Positions 3,367 to 59,650 of a stretch of DNA of 64,000 nt are shown here, piece after piece. The notes under the pieces are model-generated. The model saw only the letters and a program-made list of their open reading frames with translations, was not told the DNA's origin and did no database searches. Made by a program: the position numbers and the translations under genes. The number at the start of each line of letters is the position of its first letter. The stretch's first letter is position 1. The DNA is taken from NCBI GenBank assembly GCA_000091205.1, contig AP006500.2; one strand, written 5' to 3'. This stretch comes from Cyanidioschyzon merolae (lineage: Eukaryota).

Positions 3367-4420
3367 GGGCGAAGCCGAGGACGGACCAGGAAGCGGGCCC
3401 GACGGCGCTGGAGGTGCAGAAGAACGCGTTTGTCGTTGGCGTGGATCCCGGGAACACCCACATCGTTACCATCGCAGCACCCAAGCGTGAGGAAGATGGC
3501 TCTGTCGGCAACTTACGTCAGAAAGACATAAGTCTGTTGAAGCTCTCATGAGCGAGATATTACCAAGAATCCGGTATAATGAATGCGACGGAGAAAAGTG
3601 AGACATCGAACTCAAGAGTGAAGGGAATTTGGAAGCGATCAGCCGGGTGACGAGCCGCGGAGCCGACATTGAAGCGTTTCGAGAGGTTATGAGCATTCAC
3701 GCAGCTGATGACGAGAGCTTTTGGAAAGAATGCACAAAGTTCAGGTGGGCTCGTCTGCGTATGAACCTGTACTGTAGGAAGCAGCGAGCATACGCCAGCT
3801 TTTTCAATCAATTGAGCGCCCTCAAGGAGGACATGAGCCAAAGGCTCGGAGTAGCATACGGGGCAGGGCGCTGGATGACCCAAAAAGGGTGTACACCAGC
3901 TCCAACGACAAGAACGTACAAGGAGTGCGCACATCGTTATGTCGAAATACCTTTAGATGAGTTTCGAACATCTCATACACACCACGAGCTGTGTTGTACA
4001 CTTCAGAGGGTCGCGATGGAGAAAAGCCAGCGGCTCGCTGACGGAAATGCAAATAGCAAGGAGGGCGAAACTTCGAGGACTACTCGCTTTGGTTCGTAAA
4101 ACTAATGATAGGAAGAAACGAATAGAGTTCCTGGACTGAGACTTTAACGCCGCCATCAGTATAAGGAAATGTGCAGTACTGGAAAGAAGACCCCCGGAGT
4201 TGGCGAGAGCCAACTTTGCGGGGCAACCTCTTAAAATGGAGTGATACGAGAAGAAGTTGAAACCAGTAGTAGGTGGCCAGTTGCTGAACGCCAGCACAGT
4301 CGTCTGCACATCATTGGGTAGACAATCGGTCTACGGCGGACGGTGTGAGAAACGCCACCATTGTACACTGGCTTTCCAGCGTTTCTCTTTTGCAAGGCGT
4401 TTGGTGGTGTTTCCAGAGAC
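3367..4420 (+). mobile_element. Fanzor/TnpB-like element, copy 2, inverted relative to copy 1 (heavily frameshifted pseudogene)
   Basis: The plus strand from 3406 encodes EVQKNAFVVGVDPGNTHIVTIAAPK, matching RuvC-I. ORF 3629..4099 carries VAYGAGRWMTQKG...IPLDEFRTSHTHHELCC. From 3957 the sequence encodes RIEFLD, and after a frame change FNAAISIRKCAVLERRPPEL. There are multiple frame breaks. A diverged version of the conserved tail lies at 4280-4400 as the reverse complement of the other copies' tails. Confidence 0.65.
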
Positions 4421-36989: not shown

Positions 36990-38950
36990 ACGCTACCGGC
37001 AACGAGAAGGCCGCGAATCCGACGCCGCCACGGGCGATATTCGGAGGTGGTGGCGGCTGCGGCCGCCCGCCGTTGCCAGGATTTCTGGCGGTACGCCTCC
37101 CGGTCTACTTGGACTAGGCACCTGCTGCTGATTTTGTTTTCTGCTTATATGATATCACCTTAAGAGGTTGCCCGACAAAGCTGGCTCTCATTAGCTCCGG
37201 GGGTCGCTTAATCATCAACACGCATCTTTCTATATTGATAGCGGCGTTAAAGTCTCGGTTCACAAACTCTATACGTTGATTGCCGTCGGTAGTTGTACTC
37301 ACCAGTGCGAGTAGTCCAGGAACTTTTGCCCTGCTTTCCATTTGCTGTTTGGTCAGCGCTCCGTACTTTTTTATATCCTCAGAGTTCCACTGGCACTTTT
37401 GCATCTCGACCCTTTGGATTGTACACCTCGGCTCGTGGTGTGTATGTATGACGTTCGGAACTCATCTATCGGTATTGTGAGAAAACGGTGTGCGTACTCG
37501 TTGTACGCTCGTGTCGACGGAGCGGGCGTAGACTCTTTTTCGGACGCCCAGTGCCCTGATCCGTACGCTACTATAAGCCTTTGTCTCTCGTCTTCGTTCA
37601 GGGCACTCAACTGGTTGAAAAAGTTGGCAAATGCACGCTGCTTCCCATAGTATAAGTTCATGTGCTGACGAGCCCACCGGGCGGCTTGGTATACTCCTTT
37701 CACAGCTCCTCGTCATGAGCAGCGCGAAGTGGTATGAATTCTCAGAGGGCTCGAAAGTTCGCTCCGCGACTCGTCATTTTGCTGAACTCCTCCCTGCTTA
37801 CATCGAACTTCGGACTGATCTCTTTCATGATGCCGTAAAGGGCTGCGGAGTCGATTGTCACAAAATGTGCATTGATCTCGCATAACGGAACGACATGGAA
37901 GCGCTTACCCGGAAACGCAGCCATTCGTTTCTCCGACTCTTCATTTGCTTGCACACCTGGTTCCATCTCCGCCTTGCGTTCGAGTTCTCGGTCCAAAAAC
38001 ACGAAAGGGCGCAGGATTAGGCGATAGCATCTTTCTTCATCTTTTTTCAACGCTGGCATCTTTTTGTGCTCAGTTGACAAACCCTAGGACCGTGCGGCGC
38101 TCTTGGATGGCCACATGGAGTAGAGAAGCTTCATTCCTTCTCCTGCGTGACGTCTTCCTGTCGACGAATTCGATCTTCTGTTCATGCTGGCGATCGTCCG
38201 AAATGCCATTGATGATGGTCCGTATCCTTTTGCGAGAGAGGCGCGGGTAGAGTCCAAACATGGAACGTATCATGAAACGTTCGAGGTTCATGTTCAAATG
38301 GTTTTTCAGATTCGTGAGACACTTTTTAGACCCGTATTCATACATATTATCGTGACCCCTGTATCGAGTACTGTTGGAGCGGAATTTGGCGTAATTTTCG
38401 TGGAGGCCCTGCACTCGCTCATTTCTCCTCGACATTTCATATGTGCCCAGTATCAAGTGGCGAATGAAGGTCTTGTTGAAAAATTCCTTCGGAATCTCGG
38501 TTGTTTCCATATGCGTCACGTCGCGATTCGTCTCCCACACCAAATGCACGAGTCCTGAAGAACCGTTTCGAATGCTACTGGAGTAGGACGCCACACGCTT
38601 TCTGATAGTCTCGTCCATCCTTGTCTCGTACGGATCCTTGCAATGTCCAAGAAGACAGGGTTTCACTACCATCTCGATGCACTGTCGTCTTTCTTGCAGC
38701 CATTGACGTCTGGCCTCCTGCCTTAGCTTCTTCGTGTTGTCTCGTTCATCCGGGATCGGCTCTGTTTTCGTTTCTTTCCGTCAGCCGGCGACAGTGGTCC
38801 TCCAGGATCCTCCACTTCCATGTCCATAGCTTGCCTTTTTACTTTTGAAAAAGAACGCACTTTAGACACTTCTGCTATAGACCCCGGAAAATCACTTGAG
38901 TAGACTATACTGGAGATTAAAGTACAATGGAGATGAAAAACTATGCTTCG
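36990..38950 (-). mobile_element. Fanzor/TnpB-like element, copy C (RuvC core partly deleted; N-terminal extension retained)
   Basis: Minus-strand ORFs 37114..37404 (FVNRDFNAAINIERC = RuvC-III), 37371..37703 (VAYGSGHW...IPIDEFRTSY), 37742..38080 and 38070..38672 are homologous to the N-terminal ~400 aa of the 52-55 kb copy, at roughly 55% aa identity. For example, HENYAKFRSNSTRY...KKCLTNLKNHLNMNLERF aligns with HENYAEYRFERTRY...KKYLTNLKNHLTMYPERF. The flanking ends are homologous to copy A at both LE (38760-38950) and RE (36990-37130). The RuvC-I region is absent. Confidence 0.7.
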
Positions 38951-40628
38951 ATATGACTTTAACGCGTATGCACCTTGTACGTTAGATAAACACGCTAAGT
39001 GTAAGGATCGCATTTCCCTTCAATCACGAGATGCGCTTCCTATCTCACGCCTGCCAGATATGATGCTGCGAGTATCGACTGCACTATATAGAAAATAGAA
39101 CAGAAATTATCCAATAACTAGCAACGAGATTGGGATTCCTTTCCGTCTCTACGATAAACGTTAAAAGGAGGAAAACGTTTCCACACGTTCAAAAGTCTAC
39201 CGTATAGGCGGAAGGTCCAGCGACCCGGAAGAGTGCGCCGGGCTCGTGCTCCATACCCCCAATAGCAGGTGCTTTAGAGCGATCTGAGCAGCTCGTATCG
39301 AGCGCAATTCATTCTGGGATTCGAAGCGGGTAGTACGCGCCTGCGCGTCGCCCTGGTCTCCTTAGATATCGATTCGCGCTGTCGCAGGCAGTAGGTCCGT
39401 CTGCGCAGCTTGCAGGCTCCCAGCATGATCATTAGCCCTGATCCCGTGTCAGGTGTTGCGTTATTCGAGTCGACACCCTCAGTGGTATGGCGAAGCCGTT
39501 TTGTCTCCGTGCAGCACCCGCTCCAGCGATATAGGCGCTATGGTAGGTTCCCAGGACAGGCACTTGGCTTACGATAGAACGCAAGAAACGACCGGTGCGT
39601 CCGAAAGAATGCATAAGTAATGGAGCTTGAAGGTAGATGCTTCATGATGGACGCTTTCCAGATCATCAATACCCGTCCCGCAGCAAGGGATCCATGGTCA
39701 CGATAAACGTTTCGTCATCTGAAAAAATGACAGCGGCTGCACGAAAGATTGCGCAAAGCGTTGGCTGATCGCCGCATATTGTTTGTTGGATGCGAGCATG
39801 TTGTCGATGCGTCTACATGGGTACGGCAATGGCAGCGCCTATTTGTTTGAACGCACTATGATTCCTGAAAGCAAGTCTGAGCGGCTAGTCGCACGACCTG
39901 TGGACTTGTGCAGCATGACGAATGCTGGTCTTGATACTGATCGTCATCGCACCGTTGGGGTTCCCAGGCTCGGTTCAACGATCCCACTCGATTCGAAAAA
40001 TCGATTCTGGAGCGTCCAAGCAGCACGTGCCTACTCAAGAAACCCTCATGGAAGGCACCAGCGCGCTTCTTCGCTCCACAGAGCCGACGAAGGTCAGTGG
40101 CAGCAAGGCGGTATCGATGCTGATATCACGGGCGGAAGATCTCACGAACGTAAACAGCCCCCGTTTAGCCATTTTTGACACGGAGGAAGCCCTGTCACAA
40201 CGCCACGGTTCCGCCCAGTGTGCCAGTGAAACACGGAAACCGCGATGCATGTTTCCGAGCTTCGCACATCTCATCAAGGCTTTCACGTTTGTTCTGCGTA
40301 GTCCTCTGAAAAATTTCCGGTGTGCCTTGGAGCCGGCCCCGGTTTCCATTTACAAAATAGAGGATTCTGTAAGCCAAAGGTCTTCCTATGCGTACAACAG
40401 CGCTGCTGGTCGGATGTGTTTCAGCAGTATCGAACACCTTGCGCAGCGTTGCGAGGCGAGAGCCCCGTTCACGGCACCCGATGCGGTCGATAGCCCTGTA
40501 TCATCATCCACGTGAGCATCCCGCACAACATTAACCGGCTTCGCAAGGCAGCACTAACCGTGGAATACGCACCGGCATCCGGTTCACGGACTCTGCAAGA
40601 TACATTCACTGCGCGTCAGTGCAGGCCG

Positions 40629-44807: not shown

Positions 44808-47800
44808 AAGTAGCCAGATTTGTGTCTGTAAATGTCACCAAGAAGTAACTATATGACGCGAAAAAGCGCGGACTGTGTCTGCGTCGTTTTGGAGGCCTGC
44901 TTTGTGGTGCGCTGTATGCAGAACAACGTGTCGCTGAACCCCAGCGACTTCCAATGAGGCATTCAAATTGCGCAACGGTTTCATGGCCGGACACACCGGC
45001 GTCGCTGCTGCAGCGCTGCCGGATAGATTTCTCACGAGAGGGACATAGATAGATAAATATGTATAAAAGGGTTTTTATGACGTAGGACGGCGCCCGCAGC
45101 GCTGCCGGATTGATTTCTCACGAGAGGGCCATAGATAGACAATTAGTCAAAAAGGCGTACTTATGCAGCGGGGCGGTACCTGGATCGCTGCAGGATCGAT
45201 CCGCTGCGAGCTGTATATCATTAGATAACGTGGACCTATGTGTGTTCGCACAACGCAGCGTCGAGGATTCGAAGATGCCGTCCGCGCGGCTTTTTACGTC
45301 GAAACCTAAGGAAATACGAAAGGCGATTCCCCGCGATAGCATACACGCCATCTCGACTCACGTCTTGTCATCCAAATATCTCTCAGGCACTTGTGCAAAG
45401 GCTACTTTACAACCAGCCTTAAAAGATATACCCTCAAACTTACAAAGCGTAGAGCGGTGAGTGCAATCTACCCGAAAAGGGAGAACTGCAGCTCTACAAA
45501 TGGATTCCAATTGGTGCTTCTTCATTATTTGTAGTATCCTCCGGTTGTTGAGCTATAGGCGGCGAGTACTTCCTCAAATAAGATTCATCAAGATTAGAGA
45601 TGCTTTTAACGCTCAGAGGCAAGAGAGTCCAAAGGCCGACTTGGCGTCCGCATCGAAGTCGGACACCTAAGTGAGAATGAAATGAAAGCGGTCCCCTCAC
45701 TGAACGCGACCGTGCACGCTGAGGTTCATGTCTCTTTCCAATGTAATCAACACCAGCAGCTGCAGGCTTTTTGTTTGACAGCTTCCTTTTCCTCCCATTT
45801 GTATCCAGCTTTGAATATGCCAGTCTCTCCTTCCAGATCACTTGTTTGCTGTGGAAGGACCTTGACGGCAGCATTAAGGTCCCACTGATGCTGTTTCCCG
45901 AGGCTTCCAACGCATTTTATGCAAACCCTGTGGTGTTGACGCACGCTTCGGTGGCCGTGCCCATCTTCTTTGTGTCGTGCATCGATGCGCCTTTCGCACG
46001 GTAGCACTCGGCCGTGGTTAGGTGCCCCAACGTGACCATCACAGCTCGTCTTCCGAGGGCCACTCTGTGGCGCGTGATCGCTTGCGATAGCGCTAGGTTT
46101 ATGCCCTTGTCGAGGACAGATGGCAACCCTTGATGCTTTTCTCCATTTCCGCATCCGGTTCGGCACCCTAAGATCACGGGCTCCTTCTTTGAGATCTTCT
46201 CAATGCGTACGCTGACGGCTGCACGGAGAAGCGCGCGATTTCCATTCGAAAGAGAATTTGTGGAACGCAGTCTTGTCCGAGATGAAAAAAATATCGGCAG
46301 GAAAATCCAGGCCAGAGAACAAATCTAGAAACTGTCATTCGTGCACATTCCTTTTCTAAGACGGAGCGACACGCGCTTCACATGACGCGATCTCTACGAT
46401 GACCAGAGTTTGGCTCCAAGAATCTTTTCCATGCAAAAAGAGCAGAAGAGATGGGAGCATCTGTAAGCATATCCCGTCGCAAATGCTATGCTGCTGTCGA
46501 ATGGCGTTTCTTTGATGGATACAAAGGGCGGTGGATTTGTATTTCGATCAGCATTGATACTTTGACGTGACAACTACAATGGATTTTCAGTGTACGCTTG
46601 TGAAAAGCCTTAAGTTCAGTGGCTCGAGTAGGCGCGCTCACAACTCGTCTCGAAACGGGAAGATCGAGAATTTTAAGAATGCGTGATCTAGGCATACACC
46701 GCCTAAGGGCAGGAGAGGGAAGGAGGCATGTACACATGGACTAGATAACACTATCAGTTTTTCCTCAAACGCATGTTCGATGGCATCCCGGATCATCTTG
46801 ATTCCTGTACCCAAATGAGCTTCGGCGGCAACGATATGAGGGACCAACTCCGAAAAGACGACCGAGAACCATGAAAATAAGTCTAAATAAGTTGACCCTC
46901 CTTGTTACTCTTCTATTTTCAAGGCGACATACCGAAGGAAAACTTCAGGGAAAAATCGAAATACAGGAACGGAACGAGAAGTTCGGTGTTCTCATTCACT
47001 GCGACACGGGTGTGGCTCGTCACCTCAAAGAGCATTGAAAACGTTTCTATCCTAAACGAAAACGTTACCTGCAGGGATACCATCGACGATTCGTCAACTA
47101 CGACTGGCACCCGCGAAGAACTACACCATTCATGCTCCTGCCAGTGAATTGCGCTATCGCTGTCAGGAATTCAGGGAAATGAGCTCCAACTGAACTCGCC
47201 CCAGCAGCCTGTGACGCGAGTTTCGCTGCTTGCATAAAGTTCGCTGACATATGCGTTCCTATATCCAGATGGGCTGTACATATCCCCCGAAGGCGTACCA
47301 TCAGGAAAACAAAATAGGAAACTTGTCGAGCTACGGCACTGGGCGATCGCAAAGGTCTAGCGAGGCCGCCTAACCTAAAGCAGGCACTCACAGGCGTAGG
47401 TACGGGACAGAACCTCTATTCTAGGGGATCGCTAGCGAGCAGACGCCCTCCAGAGCGACCCCGCGTCATCGCAAGGTCTCGGCACCCGGTAGCGTTAGAA
47501 CAGAGCACAATCTCAAGTAGCCGACGGGGGGCAGGGTATCTGTAGCAGTAACGAACGCTCGTGAGTCCTAAACTTGAGTGGTTCAAGCTCCATCGTACTT
47601 GAACAACAGCCTCAACACGTCCGCACGCTGAACCACGACAGGAACCTAGTGCACCGCTCGGCCCGCGCTGCGTTCACTCGACCTCTCCAGCCGACTGCAA
47701 GCTCCAACGTTAGAAAGCAGCCACGACGCCAAAACGGTTCCGTCTCGGTGTTCGTGTTGATCCCGACGCGCACCACAGCCTTGGAGCAGTGCACGGTTAG

Positions 47801-48411
47801 CAAACTGCGCAATGTCGCTTGCGGCTGCCAGTGTTTCTGATCTCACCGCTTTGCCTCACTGGAGAGGCCAGGCTACTGGTCGCCCTCCACGGTGTCGATA
47901 CGTCCATCGCATTGTTGGTTCGTTCAGGTTCACGAGAAACGAGATACAGCGTCAGCAAAGGCTCACGTTCGATAATCATAACTGGCTCTGACGATAACAG
48001 AGTTCACCGTACGGCCTCGCTCTAGAAGTCGCCTGCTGCTCGAACGCCACCGTTTGCCGAAACATCTATATGATATTCCATGTAGATACTCCAAAGTTTC
48101 CTGTCATACTAGAGAGTCCAAGGAATATAACGTACGTTTCCACGTCTTCGTCGATTTGCTGCTGTACGCTCGAAGGCACAGCGTCTATACAGAATAGCTT
48201 TGAAGCGCGGTGTACGCACGCGCGATGCGCTGCGCTGCGCGCCCAGATGGCACCCGGGTTCGGATTCGTTCGCGTTATCTCCCCGAACGTTGCCGGTACG
48301 CGGCAAACGTGTACCATAAACCGCACTTGGGAGGCTGTCACTACGATTCGTGACTGTGAGTGCCACTGATAGAACCGGAACGAGTTTGTAGCGAAGACCA
48401 AGGTTAGTGCG

Positions 48412-51400
48412 GTGTCGTTCGCGGTGGCAATGGCGTTCGTTACTTTCGGGGTCGTGTCTGGAGGCACCGGGCGGCAACCGCTAGCTGACAGGTCACCGGC
48501 GTTCTTGAATCAGCACCCAAGAAAGACAAGCCGATCGGTGCGGTGTCGACGGCGAAGATTCTCGCGTAAAGTGTCTCGAAGATGTCTGCTGAAGCTCTGC
48601 AGCGTTGCTGAACGACAGTCATCCGACTCGGTGCGACGAGAGCAGGGACAGAAGCGGGGCAGCAGTAGCAGCGCCAGCAGCCGTGATGAGCGCTATGCGC
48701 GGAACGCAGCGGAACAGCGCCAGGCAAGCGACTCTGTATCGACGGAGACGCGAGCCCGAGTGTCTCGAGCGCTCCTACAGGGCGCGCAGGGGGTGGGCCT
48801 CGGCCTCTACTGGATTGCTCGGCAAGCGGTGCGTGTATGTGTGCCGATGGCTCGCTCGGCGTTTAGCCAGCTGTCAACGCTTGTGCAAGACCATTCCAGT
48901 CGCGCGTTCACCTCAGTGGGGGTCCAATCACAGCCAGAACCGCATCATAAGCCGTACGTTGCATCTGAAGCGGACGAGGCAGCGCGGGCGCGGCCTAACG
49001 ACACAGCCGTTGGTGCGGATCGTGCTCAGCGGCGATCTAATCATAAGAAACGGGGGCCACGTTCAGGTCCACCATCGGGAGCGAATGCTCCAGAGCAAGC
49101 AGACGAGATGTCAGCTCGACTGCGGAGAAAGTACCTTCGATCGTTTGGGAGCATTCCGGAAGTTGTACTCTTTGACCTTGTCGCCGAATGTGAAATGCGA
49201 AAGCAATTTGCGCTACCAGAGGAGACTCCATCAAATATGTCGCTTTTAGGGCAGCGAGCCTGCTATATCCCGTATGAGCTGCAGCGCATTATTTTCGACG
49301 AAATTTTGACGCCAGATTTTGCCGCCTCTGACGCTGACCGCGATCTGTTTCAGAGCAGCAATACATCCATTCCGCTCGGCGCCAAACACACGTTGCGAGC
49401 TACAGACGGCTCAGCGGCGTCCACCCCGAGAGCACCCGAGGTCGCTGTGCCGGTTCCCGTTCATATCATGGATTCGCTGGTGGCGGCTGTGGCACCCTGG
49501 AGCGCCGGCACTGGGAGTCCGGGGAGCGCACCAAAGGCGGCAAATTCGCCGAATGATTGGAGTCAAACTGCGACAGCGCCTCGAGTCGGGGTCCAGGGCG
49601 AGTCGCCGGCATCTACTTCCAACCTGGACGATATGGTACCTGCAGCAGCAGCAGCAGCGGCAGCAGCAGCAGGGCAAGTATCCGTGGATTCTTCCGCCCG
49701 CAGGGGCAGCATGCTGTACATCCCGATATCGGCGCTCGGGAGCTTGTGGCAAGCCATCTCGGCAATGAGTGCGGGCGGACGCAAACGGCGCGAGGAGGCG
49801 CAACGTATTCGTACGTACTCGAATGCCGCCGACGCTATGGCTCGCGAGGATGCCGTTATGGCGGGTCTCGCTGGCGCAGACGGTGGAAGCACCATGGCCT
49901 CGGCATTTGCAACAGCGAGCGCCATTATGGCGAGCACACCGACGCGATCGCCATCGATACCCGTGCAGGGCGCCGAGGCTGGAACTACCGCTAGTACGCG
50001 CGAAACGGAACAGAAGGCCTCGCGTCCAACAAATGGATCCGTGGAATCAATCGAGGTATTGAGCAGACCGCAGGCATCGGCTGCCAACTTGGGCAATCAG
50101 CAGAAGCGAGATCGCACGGAGTCGAAAGAGGGGACGGGTGCGAAGCAGAGCGCACCAGTGAACCCGTCATCAGCGTCTGCTGCATCCGCTGCAGCTACCA
50201 GTACAGAAGTAGCTGCAGCGGATGCAGCAGAAAGTCCTCTGTCGAAAGACAAGACGAGAAACTGGTGGTCGACGCTTTTCTCGTTTACTTGGCCACGCCC
50301 GCGGAACGCTGTCGACTCGGGATCTGCGACTGCGACTAACTCGGAGGATCATGCAATTGAATCCATCCAGCGCCTGTTGCTTTCACGACATTACGGGGCA
50401 GGCGCTGGCCATGGCCCTGTGGATGCTGCCGTCTTCGATGAGCTCGTCGATCGAGTGGAGCAGCTGACGCTTCGCGCTGCAGCAGAAGCGGCCATGGCGA
50501 TTCGCACGCGAAAACAAGCCATTGCATTTCTGGAAGAGGTAGGTGTGGCACCGTTGTTGAATGCACTGAGCATGACGGACTCGCTGCAGCTCTCGAGGCC
50601 GGATGCTGGACGCCGCAGGAACAGCAACAGCAACACCAACCTAGACGATGAAACCGCATCACAGAGAAAGCGCCCACAACAAGAACAGCAACGTGAAGCC
50701 GCCTTCACGGTATCCCTAGCTGTGGCTGCACTCGCAAATCTGACCAACGTCTTGCCTCGCTGCAAACCGCAAATCCTTCGTTATCCAGGCCTCTTGGATG
50801 GTCTGTTGCGTATCTTGGAAGCACCGGTAGCCGGAGAGTCATGGGAGATGCAAGGCAAGTGGAGCGCATGTATGCTCATCGGCACCCTGATGATGGATGC
50901 TGCCACGAGCGATCGTGCCCTCTTCTTCCGGAATCGTCGACTGGTTCGCGTGCTCGAGTCCATGGCAGGCGGCACACGGGTCGGCTACCCGGAGGATGTT
51001 GCACGGGCATCGCGTCGGGCGCTCGCTTGTCTGGGCGTGCATCACTGGAGGCCGCGCGTTCGAGGCCAGCGCGGTTTGCGCATCCTTGCACTTGACGGAG
51101 GTGGCACTCGGGCGCTCATGTCTTTCGAGATTCTGAAGCACCTAACCAAATTGACTGGCTGCCAGTTGCATGAAATGTTCGATATCATTTGCGGAACCTC
51201 GACGGGGGCGATTATTGCCGGCTCGTTGGGGATTCGCCGGCGTCCAGTTGAGGAGGTCGAGAGCCTCTACCGTGAACTAATCGGCAAAATTTTCGCCAAA
51301 AAGCTGAGCAGTGCGCCGAAAATGTTGCTCACTCGGGCCTACTACGATACGGACTTGTTTGAGAGCATTCTGAAACGTGAGGCAGGCTCATTGCGGATGA

Positions 51401-52284
51401 TTGATTCCACCATGGACCGGGATATGAACTACGTGTTCTTCGTAAGCTCCGTGATGAATCGACGTCCGCACCAGCTGCATCTGTTTCGAAACTATTGCCA
51501 CGCACCAGGCCAGGAGTCCAGATACCCAGGGACTGTGGATGCAACCCTATGGCAGGGTATGCGGGCCTCGTCGGCGGCTCCGACGTTTTTTTCGGAAATT
51601 GTATTGAATGGACTCATTCACGCAGATGGAGCTCTGGTTGCGAATAATCCCGCAGGGGTGGCAGCGCACGAGGCACGCCGCTTGTTCCCGAATGTGCCTA
51701 TCGAGCTCTTGGTGAGCGTGGGAACCGGAGTCGCCGAGAAGACTAGCCCTCTATCGCCGCTAAGCACCACGGACAGTGGTGTGTCCACGGGCACCAGAGA
51801 GGGCAGCGGTGGCGACGGCGGTGCCTCAACCGAGAGCGAAGCTGCGAGTGCGCTTCGTGAAGCTGCCACGACTTCGGCGATTTCCGCAAGTGGTGGTGAT
51901 GGTGCAGATGCCGCAGCTGCTGCCGTCCCGAGCCGAATGAGCTGGAACGACGTGATCAACTCGATTGTGGACTCTGCAGTCGGCACCGAGAGTGTGCATC
52001 ACATCCTGGAAGATGTGTTGCCTGCAGATGTTTATTTTCGATGCAATCCAGAGATCAGCGTGATGAATATTGATGAGGTTCGTCCCGGCAAGCTCATGGA
52101 AATGATTCGATGTGCACAGGACTACATCGCCGCGAATGCTGATCGCTTTGATGAGTTAGCGGCACGGCTGCGCCCGAAAATGCCCCAGAATTTACTAGAA
52201 CGGATCCGTTTTGAGCTGCAACAGGAGGCCAGTCTGATTCTCGACTTGGACGATGCACGGGAAGGGCCACTTCCTGCGCTTTAG
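48412..52284 (+). CDS. Patatin-like phospholipase (iPLA2-like) with long N-terminal low-complexity and ARM/HEAT-like region, 1290 aa
   Basis: The patatin catalytic motifs are the oxyanion-hole LALDGGGTRAL, the nucleophile elbow GTSTGAI (GxSxG) and the catalytic Asp in IHADGALVANNPA (DGA/G). They are preceded by repeats such as LANLTNVLPRC...LLDGLLRILEA. The N-terminal ~600 aa is low complexity, and the true start may be downstream of 48412. Confidence 0.85.
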   Translation: MSFAVAMAFVTFGVVSGGTGRQPLADRSPAFLNQHPRKTSRSVRCRRRRFSRKVSRRCLLKLCSVAERQSSDSVRREQGQKRGSSSSASSRDERYARNAAEQRQASDSVSTETRARVSRALLQGAQGVGLGLYWIARQAVRVCVPMARSAFSQLSTLVQDHSSRAFTSVGVQSQPEPHHKPYVASEADEAARARPNDTAVGADRAQRRSNHKKRGPRSGPPSGANAPEQADEMSARLRRKYLRSFGSIPEVVLFDLVAECEMRKQFALPEETPSNMSLLGQRACYIPYELQRIIFDEILTPDFAASDADRDLFQSSNTSIPLGAKHTLRATDGSAASTPRAPEVAVPVPVHIMDSLVAAVAPWSAGTGSPGSAPKAANSPNDWSQTATAPRVGVQGESPASTSNLDDMVPAAAAAAAAAAGQVSVDSSARRGSMLYIPISALGSLWQAISAMSAGGRKRREEAQRIRTYSNAADAMAREDAVMAGLAGADGGSTMASAFATASAIMASTPTRSPSIPVQGAEAGTTASTRETEQKASRPTNGSVESIEVLSRPQASAANLGNQQKRDRTESKEGTGAKQSAPVNPSSASAASAAATSTEVAAADAAESPLSKDKTRNWWSTLFSFTWPRPRNAVDSGSATATNSEDHAIESIQRLLLSRHYGAGAGHGPVDAAVFDELVDRVEQLTLRAAAEAAMAIRTRKQAIAFLEEVGVAPLLNALSMTDSLQLSRPDAGRRRNSNSNTNLDDETASQRKRPQQEQQREAAFTVSLAVAALANLTNVLPRCKPQILRYPGLLDGLLRILEAPVAGESWEMQGKWSACMLIGTLMMDAATSDRALFFRNRRLVRVLESMAGGTRVGYPEDVARASRRALACLGVHHWRPRVRGQRGLRILALDGGGTRALMSFEILKHLTKLTGCQLHEMFDIICGTSTGAIIAGSLGIRRRPVEEVESLYRELIGKIFAKKLSSAPKMLLTRAYYDTDLFESILKREAGSLRMIDSTMDRDMNYVFFVSSVMNRRPHQLHLFRNYCHAPGQESRYPGTVDATLWQGMRASSAAPTFFSEIVLNGLIHADGALVANNPAGVAAHEARRLFPNVPIELLVSVGTGVAEKTSPLSPLSTTDSGVSTGTREGSGGDGGASTESEAASALREAATTSAISASGGDGADAAAAAVPSRMSWNDVINSIVDSAVGTESVHHILEDVLPADVYFRCNPEISVMNIDEVRPGKLMEMIRCAQDYIAANADRFDELAARLRPKMPQNLLERIRFELQQEASLILDLDDAREGPLPAL

Positions 52285-52500
52285 GGGATGGACAAGCCAC
52301 CACCGCCGTTCTAAGTCGAACGACGCCAACGGTATACAGTAGTGGCGACCGGCGCCCTAGACGAAACGTCTCCAACTGACGTGCAGACGCCTCCCCGCCT
52401 TTTTGGACCGGCCACCTACTACTGCTTCCAACTTTTTCTCGTATAGTTCGACTTTGAGAGGTTGTCCAATAAAGTTCCCTCTTCATGACTTTGGAGGTGT
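52285..52500 (-). ncRNA. Predicted omega-RNA (guide RNA scaffold) region of Fanzor-like copy A, overlapping the C-terminal codons and the 3-prime tail
   Basis: The ~200 nt at the 3-prime end of the element is far better conserved at the DNA level between copies (2290-2410, 52285-52480, 56160-56280, 59385-59500) than the ORFs are. It contains the block gcgtctgcacgtcagttggagacgtttcgtctagggcgcc and the block gccactactgtacaccgttggcgtcgttcgac (minus-strand reading). In TnpB/Fanzor systems the omega-RNA maps here. Confidence 0.4.
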
Positions 52501-54794
52501 TTTCTCCAGCACCGCACATCTCCGTATATTGATAGCGGCATTAAAGTCTCGGTTCACAAATTCCATACGTTTCTTCCCATTGGTAGTTGTACTTACTAGT
52601 GCACCTAGTCCTCGCACTTTCGCTCTACTTTCCATTTGCTCCTCCGTCAGCGGTCCATACTTTTTCATATCCTCAGGGCTCCTCTGGAAATTTTCCATAT
52701 CCACTCTCTGAAGTGTACAACCCAGCTCATGGTGTGTGCAGGACGTTCGAAACTCATCTACAGGTATTGTAACAAAACGCCTTGCGCACTCCTTGTACGT
52801 TCTTGTCGTTGGAGCTGGCGTAGTTCCTTTTTGGGTCTTCCAGCGCCCTGCTCCATACGCTATTACGAGCCTTTGAGTCTTGTCTTCTTTGAGGGCGCTC
52901 AACTTATTGAAAAAGTTCGCGAATGCCCGCTGCGTCCCACCGAATAGATTCATTCGCAAACGAGCCCACCGGGGCTTGATATACCCCTCCCACAGCGCAT
53001 CCCAATGGGCAACACGAACTTCCATGAATTTCCGAAAAGCTTCAAAGTCCGCGCCTCGGCTCGTCACCTCGCTCGAAGATTCCAGGTGATCCTTCATTCC
53101 TGCATTCCATGCAGCAATTTTCTTCCTTGCATTCATTATACCGGACTCTCGATAGTATCTTGCTCTCGAGAACCTCAACAAATGCATGTCTTTCAGACGT
53201 AAGTTGCCGTCAATGCAATCTTCCGCACACTTTGGTGCTGCGATGGTAATGATATTCGTGTTCCCAGGGTCCATGCCAATGACAAAGTCGTTATCCTGCA
53301 CTTTCTGCGCCGCAGGACCCGCCTCGTTCTTTTCTTCATGCTTCGTCGCGTCAAGCATAAAGGCGTTATCCTGCACCTCCTGCATCACAGGATCCGCCTC
53401 CTTCCCAACTTCATCCTTCGTCACATCAACGATAAAGTCGTTACCCTCAATCTCCTGCGCCACAGGATGCTCCTCTTTGTTTTCTTCATGCTTCGCCGCG
53501 TCAACGACAAGCTTGTTATCCTCCACCTCCTGCGTCGCAGGTTCCGCCTCCTTCTCATCTCCATCCTTCGCCACGTCAACGAGAAAGTCATTATCCTCCA
53601 CCTCCTGCGTCGCAGGATACACCTCTTTGTTTTCTTGATCCTTCGTCACGGGTGCAGCCGAGTGAGGGACTGGCCGATCTCTCTTCAACCGCCGATAGTG
53701 TGCACACAAGGCTACTCCATCGGTTTCGATCATCCCAGTGAACAACTTTTGCTTGCTCACTCTCAGGCGTTTGAAATCGAAGATGTTCTTCCAGTACGTC
53801 TTCCGGTTTTCACCGGAGAATTCCTCCCTGCTGACACTGAACCCCGGACTGATCTCCTTAAAGATGCCGTAAAGGACGCCGGAGTCGATAGTCTCAAAAC
53901 TTGAATTGATCCTGGACAACGGATCAGCGTGGGAGCGATTCTCCAGAAGCGCAGCCTTCCCTCTCTCCGACTATTCGTTTTTTCCACACCCGGCTCCATG
54001 TCGGCCTTGCGTCCGTGCTTTCGGTTCAGAAACATGAAACAGCGCAGGATTAGTTGATAAAATCTCTCTTCGTGTTTTTTCATATTAGGTAATTTTCCTG
54101 TTGGACTGAGTAGCCCCAAGACCGCACGGTGCTCTTGAATAGTCGCGCGGATTACGGAAGCTCCATTTGTGCTCCTGCGTGATGTCTTCTTATCGACAAA
54201 TTCGATCTCATCTTCATACTTTCGATCGTTCGTGATGCCGTTGATCATCCCCCATATTCCTTTGCGAGAGATGCCCGGGTAGAGTGCAAACACGGCGCAT
54301 ATCATGAAACGTTCCGGGTACATAGTTAAATGGTTCTTCAGATTCGTGAGGTACTTCTTCGGCCCGTAGGCGTAAATACACGAGTCAACCCTGTATCGGG
54401 TACGCTCGAAGCGGTATTCGGCGTAGTTTTCGTGGAGAGCGTGCACTAGCACATTTTCCTTCCGCGCTTCCCCTGTACCAAGCATCAGGTGACGAATAAA
54501 GGTCTTGTGGAAAAACTCGTCTGGAATCTAGACCGTTTCCATGTGCGCCACATCGCGATACATCTCCCTCGCCAAATGCATCAGTCCTGACGACGTCTTG
54601 ACAATACTCTTGGAGTACGAGTCGACACGTTTTTTGATAGCGTCCCGCAACTTTTCCTTGTAGGGATGCTTGATATGTCCAAGAAGAAAGGTTTTCACCA
54701 CCATCTCGTCGTACAGCCGTCTTCCTTGCCGCCTTCGACGTAGGGCCTTACCGTTTCGGTCCTTCTTCTCTTCTTTTTGTTCTGGACTCGGCAC
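52483..54794 (-). pseudogene. Fanzor-like RNA-guided endonuclease homolog (TnpB-like RuvC nuclease with N-terminal extension), disrupted by one in-frame stop and one frameshift as assembled
   Basis: Motifs as for the parent element. D-x-NAA-x-NI is the TnpB/Cas12 RuvC-III signature and G-x-D-x-G-x-T/N the RuvC-I signature. The lesions could be real or could reflect unannotated introns or assembly error. Confidence 0.7.
53270..53650. repeat. About six units of a ~63-bp tandem repeat inside the copy A ORF (encodes acidic 21-aa repeats EVxDNxFxVDxxKxExxKEAxPA)
   Basis: Visible as repeated ...tcaacga(c/g)aa(a/g)(g/c)t(c/t)(g/a)tt(a/c)tcct(g/c)cacctcctgc(g/a)tc(a/g)caggat(c/a)c(g/a)cctcc.. units. 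The last unit runs straight into the RuvC-I motif [13 protein letters not shown]. Confidence 0.8.
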
Positions 54795-55238
54795 TATATT
54801 TGGGTTTTTTTGGCAGCCGGCGACACTGGGCCTCCAGGATCGTCGACTTGCTATTTACTAGCTTTTCCGTTTTTTAGTTTTTTTTTGAAAAAGAACACTC
54901 TTTGAACGCTTCTTTTATATTCTACGAATAAACACTTGACTAGACTTGTTTGAGGGCTGGAACAAAAACGAACTGAAAGACTGTACCTGGCTAAGACCTC
55001 AACAGAAAACCAACTTTTTACAGCTGAACACCACGCTATTGATACCAATCGAGTTTCCCTTTAACGGCGACGCGGCGCTTTCGGAACTCGATCCGCCGCA
55101 TCTCCCGGCTGGATCCTGCTGCGGTTCAGAGACCGCAAGTCGAAAAGTGTGTGGCTGTAGTTGAAGGCAAATATGGTGCACCACGCGGCAGTAAACAACA
55201 GAAATAGGTTGTGAGACGCGACAGTCGTGCGATGAAGT

Positions 55239-56030
55239 GTGTGGCGGCTTCTGCAGCGCTCGTCGTCAGCCACTCTTTTAAAACATATTGTCGTTCTTCT
55301 ATCAACTGTGTTTGCAGAAGACTCTACTGTAAAACGTTTGACCAGGTGTGATTCGAAACGATCGGAAATGTTGCGCAAAGTATCCTTAGTGTTCCTGGTG
55401 ACCCTGCTCTACGTGCTCGCTGCAGTTGTGTCGAAGCCGGTGCGTGGGCTCTCTCAGAGCAGCACGATTGCCGAGCTGCTCGCTGCGTCTCCAAGCTCGT
55501 ACCTGCAGAACGCGCTCACAAGCGGTGCGTTTCTCGTGAATAACTCAGCCGGAAGTATTCAGTTGTTTGACGTTACACAGAACTCGTTGTTAACGAGCGT
55601 GGGCCTCTCTACCCTGATATCCACGTTGAACAAGTGCGGTATCCAGGAGCTGCACGTGCAGACGGACGCGATCGAGTACGCGTACGTTGTTGAGGGTGAG
55701 GGCACTTTCACGCTGTGGTCGTCTAACGGCTCGGTGGTATTGTTGAAGGCCCCCTTGAAGCCTGGCGACGTGGCGATTATTCCAGCCGGCTGGCCGCACT
55801 TTTTCACCGGGTCCGAGACGTCCACGACGCCGCTGGTCTTTGTCTCGACATTCACCAGCGGAGAGCCACAGGTTTATTTCCTGGCTGGTGCTGGGAATCT
55901 ATTCGCGAACGTGCCATCCGAGGTCGGTAGCAGTCTGTTTAATGTTACCGCGTCGCAGTACGGATCGTTTTTCAGAGCGGAATCGACTGTGGGTGTCGTC
56001 TTTAATGAGACCTGTTTGGGGAATGCCTGA
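55239..56030 (+). CDS. Cupin/germin-like protein with an N-terminal hydrophobic anchor or signal
   Basis: A 263-aa ORF with a hydrophobic stretch LVFLVTLLYVLAAVV. Cupin motif-2 is matched by PGDVAIIPAGWPHFFTG (G-x5-P-x-G-x2-H-x3-G/N). A motif-1-like region reads GIQELHVQTDAIEYAYVVEGEG. The gene sits between two Fanzor-like elements. Confidence 0.5.
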   Translation: MWRLLQRSSSATLLKHIVVLLSTVFAEDSTVKRLTRCDSKRSEMLRKVSLVFLVTLLYVLAAVVSKPVRGLSQSSTIAELLAASPSSYLQNALTSGAFLVNNSAGSIQLFDVTQNSLLTSVGLSTLISTLNKCGIQELHVQTDAIEYAYVVEGEGTFTLWSSNGSVVLLKAPLKPGDVAIIPAGWPHFFTGSETSTTPLVFVSTFTSGEPQVYFLAGAGNLFANVPSEVGSSLFNVTASQYGSFFRAESTVGVVFNETCLGNA

Positions 56031-56159
56031 ACGATTTGAAATCGGGAGATATCAGTGCTGCTTGCGAATGCTGTCGGGGATGTAGCTCTGCTGCGCTCCG
56101 TTGGTTACATGGACAGGAAATTTGCGGATTCTTAAAAGATAGATACGTGACGCCGCTGC

Positions 56160-58640
56160 TAGCGAGCCCCTTTCAAAACAAAAACGCTGCCGCTATCAGT
56201 ACAAAAGTGGCTACCAACGCGCCCTAGACGAAACGTCTCCAACGGACGTGCAGACGCTTCCCAGTCTTTTTGGACCGGCCACCTACTACTGCTTCCAACT
56301 TTTTCTCGTATAGTTCGACTTTGAGAGGTTGTCCAACAAAGTTCTCTCGTGTCCACTCTGGAGGTCTTTTCTCCAGCATCGCACATCTCCGTATATTGAT
56401 TGCAGCGTTAAAGTCTCGGTTCACGAATTCCATACGTTTCTTGCCATCGTTCGTTGTACTCACCAGTGCGAGTAATCCCCGAACTTTCGCCCTCCTTTCC
56501 ATTTGCTCTTCCGTCAGCGGTCCGTACTTTATTATATACTCAGGGCTCCTCCGACGCTTTTCCATCTCAACCCTTTGAAGTGTGCACCCCAGTTCATGGT
56601 GTGTAAACGATGTTCGGAACTCATCTATTCGTATCGTAACGAAACGCCTTGCGCACTCCTTGTACGTTCTTGTCGTTGGAACTGGCGTGCTCCCTTTTCC
56701 GGGTACCCAGAGCCCTGCTCCATACGCTACTACAAGCCATTGGCTCGTCCCCTTTGAGGGTGCCCGACTCATTGAAAAAGTTGGCAAATGCACGCTGTTT
56801 TCCGCAGTACAGATTCATATGCAGACGAGCCCACCTGAGCTTCGCGTACTCTTCACACACCTCCTCGTCATGAGAAACGCGAATTTTCATGAATTTCGGA
56901 AGAAAAAAAGAAAGTTCAATCGACGGCTCGTCACGTGCCTGATCGCTTCCAGATTCTCCTTCACTCTTGCGTTCCATTTCTCACTTTGATTCCTCGCATT
57001 CATCATTGCTTGTTCTCTGTACTAACTCTCTCTCGAGAACTTTAAACGACGCATGTCGCTCTGGCATAAGTTGTCGTCAGCGCCATCTTCCAAACGTTTG
57101 GGTGCTACGATGGTTATTACATTCGTGGTCCCGAGGTTAAGGCCGACGACAAGATCGTTATCCTGGGGATTATACGTGCCAGGGCCCGTCTTCTTGTGTT
57201 CGTGCTTCGGCAAGGGCGACAATGTAGATGAGGTAGGACGATCTGCCTTCAAGCGCTGATAGTGTACACATATGGATTTCCCATTGTAATCGATCGTCCC
57301 CGTGAATGCCATTTTTTGCTCGTTTTGAGGCTCTTGAAATCGAAGATATTCTTCCAGTACGTCTTCCGGTTTTCACCGGAGAATTCCTCCCTGCTGACAC
57401 TGAACACCGGACTGATCTCCTTAAAGATGCCGTAAAGGACGCCGGAGTCGATAGTCACAAAACTTGAATTGATCCTGGACAACGGATCAGCGTGGGAGCG
57501 ATTCTCCAGAAGCGCAGCCTTCCCTCTCTCCGACTATTCGTTTTTTCCACACCCGGCTCCATGTCGGCCTTGCGTCCGTGCTTTCGGTTCAGAAACATGA
57601 AACAGCGCAGGATTAGTTGATAAAATCTCTCTTCGTCTTTTTTCAAATTAGGTAATTTTCCTGTTGGACTGAGTAGCCCCAAGACCGCACGGTGCTCTTG
57701 AATAGTCGCGCGGATTACGGAAGCTCCATTTGTGCTCCTGCGTGACGCCTACTTGTCGACAAATTCGATCTCATCTTCATGCATGCGATCGTTCGTGATG
57801 CCATTGATAATTGCCCAGAATCCTTTGCGAGAGATGCCCGGGTAGAGTGCAAACACGGCGCATATCATGAAACGTTCCGGGTACATAGTTAAATGGTTCT
57901 TCAGATTCGTGAGGTACTTCTTCGGCCCGTAGGCGTAAATACACGAGTCAACCCTGTATCGGGTACGCTCGAAGCGGTATTCGGCGTAGTTTTCGTGGAG
58001 AGCGTGCACTAGCACATTTTCCTTCCGCGCTTCCCCTGTACCAAGCATCAGGTGACGAATAAAGGTCTTGTGGAAAAACTCGTCTGGAATCTAGACCGTT
58101 TCCATGTGCGCCACATCGCGATACATCTCCCTCGCCAAATGCATCAGTCCTGACGACGTCTTGACAATACTCTTGGAGTACGAGTCGACACGTTTTTTGA
58201 TAGCGTCCCGCAACTTTTCCTTGTAGGGATGCTTGATATGTCCAAGAAGAAAGGTTTTCACCACCATCTCGTCGTACAGCCGTCTTCCTTGCCGCCTTCG
58301 ACGTAGGGCCTTACCGTTTCGGTCCTTCTTCTCTTCTTTTTGTTCTGGACTCGGCACTATATTTGGGTTTTTTTGGCAGCCGGCGACACTGGGCCTCCAG
58401 GATCGTCGACTTGCTATTTACTAGCTTTTCCGTTTTTTAGTTTTTTTTTGAAGACGGACGCGTTTCTTACGTGTCTACTATAAACCACGAAAAACACTTG
58501 ACTAGATATGTTTGAGGTGTGAAACAAAAACGAACTGAAAGACTGTACTTGGCTACGACCTGAACGGAAATCCAACTTTTTTCGGTAGAACAACACGCTA
58601 CTGATCAGGATGGCGTTCCCCTTCGACGAAGGCATGCGCA
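56160..58640 (-). mobile_element. Fanzor/TnpB-like element, copy B (rearranged, internally deleted)
   Basis: Minus-strand ORF 56224..56793 carries VAYGAGLW...IRIDEFRTSFTHHELGC...FVNRDFNAAINIRRC and the full C-terminal tail ...GKRLHVRWRRFV. The fragments 57022-57682 and 57749-58357 are near-identical to 54000-54900 of copy A. ORF 58091..58357 is 88/88 aa identical to ORF 54528..54794. Confidence 0.75.
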
Positions 58641-59384: not shown

Positions 59385-59650
59385 CGAGGCACCCCTGGAA
59401 AGAAACGCCTTTCGAAAGTCGAACGGCGCCAGCGGTGTACAGTAGTGGCGAGTGGCCCGCCCTAGAAATGACGTCTGCAACTGACGTGCAGACGCATCCA
59501 AAATAAGATACCACCTCAGGAAATTTCCTTATACCTCCTCTACGGTATTCGTCGGCGAGCTACGTGGAAGTTCGTCTACGATTGTTGTGATCTCTGAGCG
59601 CAGCACTGCGGAACCCTTGGCACCAATTACTGATGAGGTTGTTGATGGGA
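59385..59650 (-). mobile_element. Isolated 3-prime tail fragment of the Fanzor-like family (copy D; no adjacent nuclease ORF)
   Basis: The stretch ctggaaagaaacgcctttcgaaagtcgaacggcgccagcggtgtacagtagtggcgagtggcccgccctagaaatgacgtctgcaactgacgtgcagacgcatcc is near-identical to the tails at 2290-2410 and 52285-52400. Similarity decays by ~59650, and no RuvC-encoding ORF is seen between 59650 and 59880. Confidence 0.65.

Follow-up and report, generated by a model that had tools for sequence, protein, structure and literature searches.

Where does a gene end when a mobile element begins almost at its stop codon? This question is raised by a 64,000-nt stretch of Cyanidioschyzon merolae contig AP006500.2 (hereafter the window, to which all coordinates refer unless a contig is named), in which a gene for a patatin-like calcium-independent phospholipase A2 is followed within a few nucleotides by a repeat. 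What begins there is the right (3') end of a minus-strand Fanzor1 element, and six copies or fragments of the element, at 70-94% identity, occur within the 64 kb. We refer to them as A to F, copy A being the one beside the phospholipase gene. We consider it likely that copy A is a CMe-1A Fanzor1 element whose putative guide-RNA end sits about 3-4 nt past the native TAG of the phospholipase, with consequences for the 3' untranslated region (UTR) of this gene and for the placement of the family as a whole.

The phospholipase gene and its stop codon

The end of the gene reads on the plus strand ...cct gcg ctt TAG ggg atg gac aag cca cca ccg ccg ttc taa gtc gaa cg..., and the TAG, which closes the open reading frame (ORF) 48412-52284, stands where the first-pass annotation of this DNA had placed it. 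A Patatin domain was detected within the ORF (Pfam PF01734, E=9e-26), and from the ATG at 48430 the product is identical in 1284/1284 residues to the membrane-associated calcium-independent phospholipase A2 of C. merolae 10D (XP_005538690.1/BAM82654.1), which marks the window as nuclear DNA of strain 10D. Its C-terminus is ...DLDDAREGPLPAL*, and two orthologues at 58% identity, one from Cyanidiococcus yangmingshanensis and one from a further cyanidiophyte, end ...GP(L/V)PAL*. Because the C-terminus is the same in these orthologues, the stop is native and the protein is not truncated. No repeat lies downstream of the gene at either orthologous locus. The stop codon itself is TAG in C. merolae and TGA in both element-free orthologues (L003:9817-9819 and L005:9790-9792; here and below, L-numbers denote environmental contigs), and this change may or may not be linked to the insertion. 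The Cyanidiococcus orthologue has a TAAA 6 nt past its stop.

Position of the right end of the element

Scanning of metagenome contigs with an 18-nt pattern from the conserved end yielded about 30 independent copies on hot-spring cyanidiophyte contigs. In these, a universal core starts at the equivalent of 52302 with AACGCC(G/T)TTC... (ACCGCC in copy A), and ahead of it stands a variable C/A-rich tail of 2-20 nt, such as CCACC, CAACAA or CACACA. The tail of copy A, ATGGACAAGCCACC, can be aligned in register with those of copy B (CTGGAATACCGCCACC) and copy C (CTGGAAACACCACC), and all three have TGGA(A/C)-N(3-5)-CCACC in common. CTGGAA is also found in copy E, L084 and L099, and L123 has GGGG at a similar distance from the core. 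From this alignment, the terminus of copy A most likely falls at 52288/52289, 3-4 nt past the stop, within a range of 52285-52301 (0-17 nt). The earlier statement that the boundary of copy A lies within ~3-5 bp of the stop is therefore borne out by the tail alignment. The string that had been quoted for that homology, AGCCACCACCGCCGTTCTAAGTCGAACG, is at 52295-52322 and has a single occurrence in the window, with diverged copies also present.

It could be argued that the boundary has been mis-assigned, and that the element ends at the core (~52296-52302) with GGGATGGACAAGCC as a remnant of the native 3' UTR. The blastn matches of copy A to the other copies in the window begin only at 52296 (B), 52304 (E), 52335 (D), 52353 (C) and 52387 (F), conservation becomes universal only at 52302, and the tail is of low complexity, all of which fits this view. 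We nevertheless regard it as improbable, as the motif shared in register by A, B and C and the CTGGAA of three more independent copies argue for a longer element. Even under this assignment the element would lie no more than 17 nt from the stop, with no UAAA fitting between the two, and the biological conclusion would be unchanged.

A Fanzor1 element of the CMe-1A family

The 478-aa ORF of copy A has motifs that resemble those of TnpB, and the RuvC triad within them, D217 (GMDPG), E389 (VDEFRTS) and D458 (NRDFNAAINI), is invariant or nearly so in a 94-member alignment. Single-sequence searches of this ORF gave no match in Pfam, NCBIfam or PDB (phmmer), and neither did a 25-sequence profile or a Pfam search with 10 distant members. 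An exhaustive profile search recovered 2127 relatives, and a profile of the 94-sequence family matched the Fanzor1 proteins in PDB, namely PpFz1 of Parasitella (9cf0, E=3.7e-23), SpuFz1 of Spizellomyces (8gkh, 2e-16) and GtFz1 of Guillardia (9cer, 6e-10). AlphaFold2 with a shallow alignment was uninformative (predicted local distance difference test, pLDDT, 33); with the 94-sequence alignment, taken from the search of representatives, it gave a model with a pLDDT of 75.5 and a predicted template-modelling score of 0.70. In a Foldseek search of PDB, ranks 1-7 for this model were all SpuFz, PpFz and GtFz (E=8e-9 to 8e-7), followed by TnpB (8h1j), Fanzor2 and Cas12. The model thus has the Fanzor/TnpB fold, in which WED is combined with a RuvC domain that bears a helical insertion.

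The Fanzor gene of copy A contains one frameshift near 53946-53979, which is also present in copy D, and its stop lies 6 codons ahead of the family C-terminus. We had considered that the ORF might be badly truncated, but rejected this, as it is only ~6 C-terminal residues short relative to the family. A further feature is an acidic repeat between the WED strands and RuvC-I, which is predicted to be disordered (pLDDT <50 for residues 83-201). This repeat is represented by one unit in copy B (3289-3365) and by several in the full-length family member P0027. Copies A, D and F have no long coding capacity besides the Fanzor gene. They encode no TnpA (Y1 HUH) or serine transposase of the kind that marks IS200/IS605 and IS607 transposons and no reverse transcriptase, and a Pfam scan found no other domain in the element.

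A C. merolae element named CMe-1A was described by Bao and Jurka (2013, Mob DNA 4:12, PMC3627910) as ~3 kb long, with ~150 copies at ~80% identity to their consensus. It encodes a Fanzor1 protein, lacks terminal inverted repeats (TIRs), and was left with target site duplications (TSDs) undetermined and its class unknown (PMC3627910). The window repeat is CMe-1A, assigned by this published description and not by alignment to the consensus: the genome is the same, as are the length of ~3 kb, the diverged copies, the Fanzor1 protein and the lack of TIRs and TSDs, and copies A-F fit. What sets our description apart is the right-end tail, the 5'-truncated right-end stubs, the phospholipase junction and the bias toward ORF boundaries, which are absent from PMC3627910. 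The element family is already known; new are the geometry of the junction, the probably borrowed 3' UTR and the bias seen across the family.

The right end as a putative omega RNA

The omega RNA of Fanzor and TnpB has been reported to derive from a conserved non-coding region 3' of the nuclease gene that abuts the right end, and its guide consists of 14-21 nt of the flank past that end (Saito 2023; Jiang 2023). By analogy, the end of copy A facing the phospholipase stop is the putative omega RNA (right) end. Conservation across 25 aligned copies is strong over the ~180 nt that separate the Fanzor stop from the tail, and this region includes the blocks CGCCACTACTGTACAC and GGCGTCTGCACGTC as well as a putative terminal hairpin CGTCGTTC...GAACGGCG. 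RNA of the minus strand at 52268-52485 has a predicted folding energy of -84.1 kcal/mol, with z=-3.1 relative to shuffled sequences, compared with z=-0.6 for the plus strand. No Rfam family matched the right-end region. Fanzor architecture and the estimate of the terminus together would place the guide template at the very end of the phospholipase gene, so an omega RNA from copy A, if transcribed, would carry a guide antisense to the last phospholipase codons. The first-pass annotation had proposed these codons as the putative guide source, which agrees with the reported architecture and with the orientation of copy A.

A probable element-derived 3' UTR of the phospholipase

In C. merolae the poly(A) signal is UAAA, which is found at 93% of primary sites with cleavage 3-35 nt downstream (PMC8831791); the supplement of that paper gives rRNA probe sequences only, with no per-gene sites. 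A motif scan of the plus strand found no TAAA in the last 60 nt of the phospholipase coding sequence (CDS) nor in the 3-17 nt ahead of the element. The first two TAAA past the stop, at 52470 and 52542, are both inside copy A and antisense to the 3' end of the Fanzor gene. With no UAAA ahead of the element, the phospholipase transcript should find its 3' end within copy A. The AATAAA at 52468 was considered as an adaptation specific to copy A and rejected: most other copies have C in place of the T at 52470, but T recurs in 3/25 aligned copies, TAAA is present there in 6/25, and there is no link to convergent genes.

Assembled contigs point in the same direction. Apart from long multi-gene contigs of 13-22 kb (L001, L006-L008), the phospholipase gene occurs in seven samples on a short contig that holds it alone (L002, L129-L134), and these short contigs are probably transcripts, though unstranded and of unverified sample type. 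Their alignments to the window start at 48223-48303, five of them within 48288-48303 and four at 48288 or 48289. All pass the stop, ending at 52411, 52551, 52552, 52593, 52623, 52675 and 53095, and so reach 127-811 nt into copy A; in two of them the end falls 6-7 nt past the TAAA at 52542. The first-pass annotation had held that the 3' UTR and poly(A) signals of this gene come from the element, and had named transcripts ending before 52285 as the contrary observation. The missing TAAA and, indirectly, the probable transcript contigs both support the claim, and 0/7 short contigs end at or before the junction.

From these sequences, it is likely that the phospholipase mRNA has no host 3' UTR, reads into the element antisense to the 3' end of Fanzor, and uses an internal UAAA. 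A host gene whose whole 3' UTR, all but ~3 nt, would be the antisense of a Fanzor omega RNA region is a modest but concrete novelty. A UTR antisense to the nuclease gene also implies convergent transcription, with possible antisense regulation.

Age of the insertion

Nine other contigs with the phospholipase gene have the same junction, and all are filled. The junction was read directly in L001, L002 and L006-L008, and L129-L132 align across it at 99% identity. When flanks were compared by blast against all loci, no polymorphic empty site was found for any copy. The orthologous loci at 58% identity (L003-L005) are element-free, but outside the CDS they are too diverged to serve as an empty site, and at the NDUFS8 locus (see below) only a too-distant Cyanidiococcus locus and a stub allele were found. 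As nine other contigs share the junction and no empty site was found, we judge the insertion of copy A to be old and fixed in the C. merolae lineage.

An excess of right ends close to ORF boundaries

To place the phospholipase junction among its relatives, we took for each independent right end (n~24) the distance from the conserved core to the nearest flanking ORF of at least 150 aa. The null was drawn from 60 element-free inter-ORF gaps on the same contigs, in which 2.1% of randomly chosen points would be no more than 25 nt, and 5.8% no more than 70 nt, from the ORF on a given side. Right ends were found no more than 25 nt from an ORF boundary in 6/24 cases, where 0.5 would be expected (binomial P=8e-6), no more than 70 nt away in 9/24 (P=5e-6), and no more than 160 nt away in 14/24 (3.1 expected, P=2e-7). 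The opposite end of the element was at least 500 nt from an ORF in 7/7 measurable copies (0/7 close; Fisher P=0.009).

Three of the six closest cases are convergent stops, at the phospholipase (copy A, 18 nt from the core), at MetAP2 (L046, ...GDDF* TGA, 12 nt) and at a SHAQKYF-type MYB gene (L086, TGA, 9 nt). The other three are co-directional ATGs, belonging to an anion exchanger (L027, 17 nt), NDUFS8 (L056, 15 nt) and a membrane-associated progesterone-receptor-like protein (MAPR; L122, 24 nt). These core-to-ORF distances include the tail of 8-20 nt, so that the true gaps are roughly 0-10 nt. Three further right ends lie at 35-70 nt, among them one at a NAT10 gene with a canonical N-terminus, and the boundary ORFs look like real genes. 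Closeness to ORF boundaries that is specific to the right end is thereby shown statistically to be typical of the family. This measurable bias is the second modest but concrete new result.

Two alleles were seen at NDUFS8. In one strain (L056:8259-8400) a longer stretch of the element, at least ~400 nt and reaching the contig end, lies upstream of the ATG; in the other (L136:200-268) there is only a 68-nt right-end stub, GGTTTTTCGCCACTACTG...GGTGAA followed directly by the ATG, which comes after unrelated sequence. The 68 nt by the ATG are kept.

One account of the bias would be coincidence combined with purifying selection, in which copies land at random and the harmless ones survive, with no preference or function involved and with copy A beside a stop codon by chance. 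The genome is compact, with a median element-free inter-ORF gap of 934 nt and 10% of gaps below 150 nt, and other copies in the window are not beside ORFs (B at 659 nt, C at 2506 nt and F at ~300 nt). We think this account unlikely. The excess of right ends within 25 nt and within 160 nt, set against 0/7 for the opposite end, runs counter to it, and an insertion 10 nt upstream of the ATG of the essential NDUFS8 gene (L056) should be among the most harmful sites. The numbers disfavour plain survivorship.

Target-site preference near gene ends had also been suggested at the outset. The part of this suggestion that stands is the closeness itself, with 6/24 right ends at the boundary against 0.5 expected and with starts as well as stops represented; a preference at the time of insertion, however, is inseparable from later retention or erosion.

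Possible causes of the bias

Several points weigh against the likely reading given at the outset, that of a CMe-1A right end at the native TAG with its consequences for the 3' UTR and the family. As the tail is variable and of low complexity, some of 52285-52301 may belong to a native 3' UTR. No empty site was found among the nine other C. merolae-like contigs carrying the phospholipase gene or at the other sampled loci, so the terminus is an estimate from the alignment of copies. For the left side, neither a terminus nor a target-adjacent motif (TAM) is defined, as homology runs past 55066 and subfamilies differ. The nuclease gene of copy A reads as defective, with its frameshift and early stop. 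RNAalifold and explicit pair counts gave no covariation above shuffled alignments, so no specific fold is claimed for the omega RNA. The RNA-type contigs could combine the mRNA with antisense transcripts of the element, or could derive from DNA and break off at repeats, and three of them have different non-colinear leaders (L132:1-83, L133:1-40 and L130:1-77). In L132 and L133 the join is at 48289, and the leader ahead of it ends ...GTGCGGT in both; such leaders may stem from faulty assembly, structural variation or chimeric RNA. Finally, the bias was measured on ~24 copies drawn from a mixture of environmental strains, and ORFs of at least 150 aa served as proxies for genes.

If the right end is indeed a guide-RNA end, it must be transcribed outward to make the guide, and this suggests how a boundary position could be borne. 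An outward-transcribed right end could give co-directional genes a 5' leader or promoter and convergent genes a 3' UTR or terminator, so that such positions would be tolerable in a compact genome because the right end supplies UTR, terminator or promoter function. This is the first part of the reading of the bias that we prefer; the second is that a guide or target in constrained coding sequence would favour long-term retention. The 5'-truncated copies that keep the right end (B, C and E, and stubs in L014, L053 and L136) would fit copying begun from the right-end side, which, as a speculation, would be expected if repair were primed from the right-end flank of a guide-directed break.

Taken further, it is intriguing to consider that the right ends of cyanidiophyte Fanzor1 elements are systematically parked at start and stop codons, the guide of 16-20 nt being drawn from the terminal codons and the end doubling as a host UTR, poly(A) site or promoter. 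We offer this tentatively, as a proposal with somewhat less than an even chance of being right. [quoted passage not shown]

Three processes could bring about or maintain such positions. The first is erosion after insertion, in which an element that landed farther from the ORF later loses the intervening DNA as far as selection allows, whether through general deletion pressure or because Fanzor cuts the flank that matches its guide and the ends are then joined. The variable tail would then be a repair scar, and it does vary in length and sequence among copies (2-20 nt). Adjacency that ends exactly at start or stop codons fits this process, as does the report of 2-35 bp deletions after Fanzor cleavage, located at the target's distal end (PMC10530073), and the strain variant of NDUFS8 with its 68-nt stub shows that deletions occur within or around elements. 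Erosion is made less probable by the lack of a known TAM or of any sign that the right-end terminus mimics one, by the alignable tails of A, B and C, which suggest inheritance over independent scars, and by the identical junction in all sampled strains. On balance we give erosion a minor chance.

The second is conservation of a homing target, whereby copies persist when their RNA-guided target lies in constrained coding sequence and the element itself just outside the ORF. In the six closest cases the 20 nt past the right end are almost wholly terminal codons, and one report describes TnpB-type elements as maintained by guide-directed cleavage of vacant sites (10.1101/2023.11.20.567912). A bias that is specific to the right end is also what this process would predict. 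Homing requires outcrossing or ectopic repair, however, and C. merolae is regarded as a largely clonal alga; many copies, including A, are decayed, and Fanzor activity in C. merolae is only predicted. We see homing as a rather unlikely cause, on a par with erosion.

The third is targeting at the time of insertion, with a transposition machinery that recognizes gene boundaries such as nucleosome-free regions, transcription start or termination complexes, or nicks for target-primed copying. The presence of the bias at both start and stop codons could be explained in this way, and the many 5'-truncated copies with intact right ends, together with a 3' tail resembling simple repeats, recall target-primed or one-ended copying. 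The element has no transposase or reverse transcriptase, though, TSDs and TIRs are undefined both here and in PMC3627910, and no common target motif was seen at the junctions, and we give this possibility little credence.

Comparison with known systems

The C. merolae Fanzor resembles the characterized Fanzor1 proteins SpuFz1, PpFz1 and GtFz1 in profile homology, fold and the D-E-D triad, and in the conserved non-coding stretch that runs from the ORF to the right end on the coding strand. It differs from them in its insertion of 5 x 25-aa acidic repeats, and its omega RNA and its DNA cleavage are predictions. At SpuFz1 loci, inverted repeats of 30 nt are present together with a CA motif on the left, whereas neither inverted repeats nor a TAM was found in the C. 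merolae element.

A likeness to homing by TnpB of the IS200/IS605 group may be drawn by analogy: there the guide corresponds to the flank of the right end, and the element is restored once the vacant site has been cleaved, as described in the same report (10.1101/2023.11.20.567912). Unlike those elements, the C. merolae element is without TnpA (Y1) or a serine recombinase, has a eukaryotic host, and is present as decayed, fixed copies. Transposons that provide 3' UTRs offer another parallel, as short interspersed elements (SINEs) bring AATAAA into dog 3' UTRs (PMC11699766). In C. merolae, too, a mobile element would supply a host 3' UTR and its poly(A) signal; the difference is that here it would supply nearly all of the UTR, antisense to a nuclease gene and a guide RNA, and that the signal is the red-algal UAAA. 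The truncated copies that keep the right end, with their variable G/T-rich 3' tail, are also reminiscent of non-long terminal repeat (non-LTR) and SINE-like elements, with no reverse transcriptase or TSDs identified in the C. merolae element.

Introns and inteins carry homing endonuclease genes whose targets are conserved sites in essential genes. The Fanzor element would be analogous in having its recognition site in constrained coding sequence while the protein product stays intact. Those genes differ in sitting inside the gene and being spliced out, while the Fanzor element lies just outside the ORF and its recognition would be RNA-guided.

The natural biology of Fanzor, including its movement, targets and cost or benefit to the host, is almost unknown, and work to date has centred on biochemistry and genome editing. 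With its complete genome sequence, near lack of introns and available gene targeting, C. merolae is a model that carries ~150 copies of one Fanzor1 family. If the pattern holds genome-wide, it would offer a handle on guides that target CDS, on a nuclease eroding its own flank, and on element ends co-opted as terminators or promoters.

Copies of the element in the window

The features discussed above and the other copies in the window are collected in Table 1.

Table 1. Coordinates of the phospholipase gene, the parts of copy A and the other Fanzor1 copies in the window
Feature	Coordinates	Strand	Remarks
Patatin-like calcium-independent phospholipase A2 gene	48430..52284	+	1284 aa; stop TAG 52282-52284
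Predicted guide template	52268..52287	-	5'-CCCCUAAAGCGCAGGAAGUG-3'; antisense to the last phospholipase codons and stop
Gap between stop and estimated terminus	52285..52287		Read from sequence; may itself be element-derived
Variable tail of right end	52288..52301	-	C/A-rich on plus strand, G/T-rich on Fanzor strand; ~30-copy alignment
Conserved non-coding right end, putative omega RNA scaffold	52302..52482	-	Kept in 25 aligned copies
First TAAA past the stop	52470..52473	+	Within AATAAA 52468-52473; 186 nt into the 3' region, inside the element
Second TAAA, candidate poly(A) site	52542..52545	+	Inside the element; two short contigs end at 52551 and 52552
Copy A	52288 to ~55110	-	Nearly full-length, slightly decayed
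Fanzor1, C-terminal two thirds (WED, RuvC D-E-D)	52483..53979	-	478-aa ORF 52483-53919
Five tandem 75-bp units in Fanzor ORF	53272..53651	-	25-aa acidic repeat linker; repeat families D6 and D8
Fanzor1, N-terminal third	53946..54794	-	Other frame; tblastn of full-length member P0027 against the window
Left (5') non-coding part of copy A	54795..55110	-	Likeness to other copies fades at ~55110
Copy B	2297-3365	-	5'-truncated, right end kept
Copy C	3390-4403	+	5'-truncated, right end kept; inverted relative to B
Copy F, divergent subfamily	~37000..39380	-	Right end upstream of a co-directional GATA-type gene, ~260-350 nt from its ATG (36742)
Copy D	56153..58635	-	Right end ~125-135 nt past the stop (56030) of a convergent cupin gene
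Fragment E	59403..59499	-	Solo right-end stub, ~95 nt

At the left end of copy A, the motif TTTCCCTT(C/T)AA at 55056-55066 was considered as the terminus and rejected, as other copies are homologous beyond it. Past the motif TTTCCCTTCAA, homology extends for more than 300 nt in copy F (38997-39380), L016, L033 and L084, and fades ~45 nt after the motif in copy A (window 55040-55420). This left-end region may match the 635-bp segment that is shared with TE-N2_CMe in the 2013 paper.

The cupin gene, which is germin-like and has a signal peptide (55368-56030), has a Fanzor copy on each side: copy A, whose left part lies upstream, and copy D, whose right end lies downstream. When A and D are compared (52335-55061 and 56200-58623), they form a mosaic, as their 5' halves are 94% identical and share the same frameshift while their 3' halves, including the omega RNA region, are 78% identical, which suggests recombination or gene conversion between copies. 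Copies B and C form a head-to-head palindromic pair, cut at almost the same internal point and ~24-47 bp apart (inverted repeat I4: 3110-3342 / 3390-3622).

Stubs orthologous or paralogous to fragment E were found in L014, L071, L075, L078, L086, L087 and L095. Fragment E lies inside another repeated sequence, whose 350-nt upstream flank is 79-86% identical at the paralogous locus in L075 and L086, and it is reminiscent of the omega RNA "ghost" loci without a nuclease that are known from reports on Spizellomyces and Chlamydomonas. At L121:520-640 the terminal 48-nt unit of the right end, AAACGCCGCTCGAAAGTCGAACGACGTCGGGCGTGTACAGTAGTGGCGG, is tandemly duplicated. Two tandem 86-bp units of 77% identity at 45010-45181 are intergenic and unrelated to the Fanzor element.

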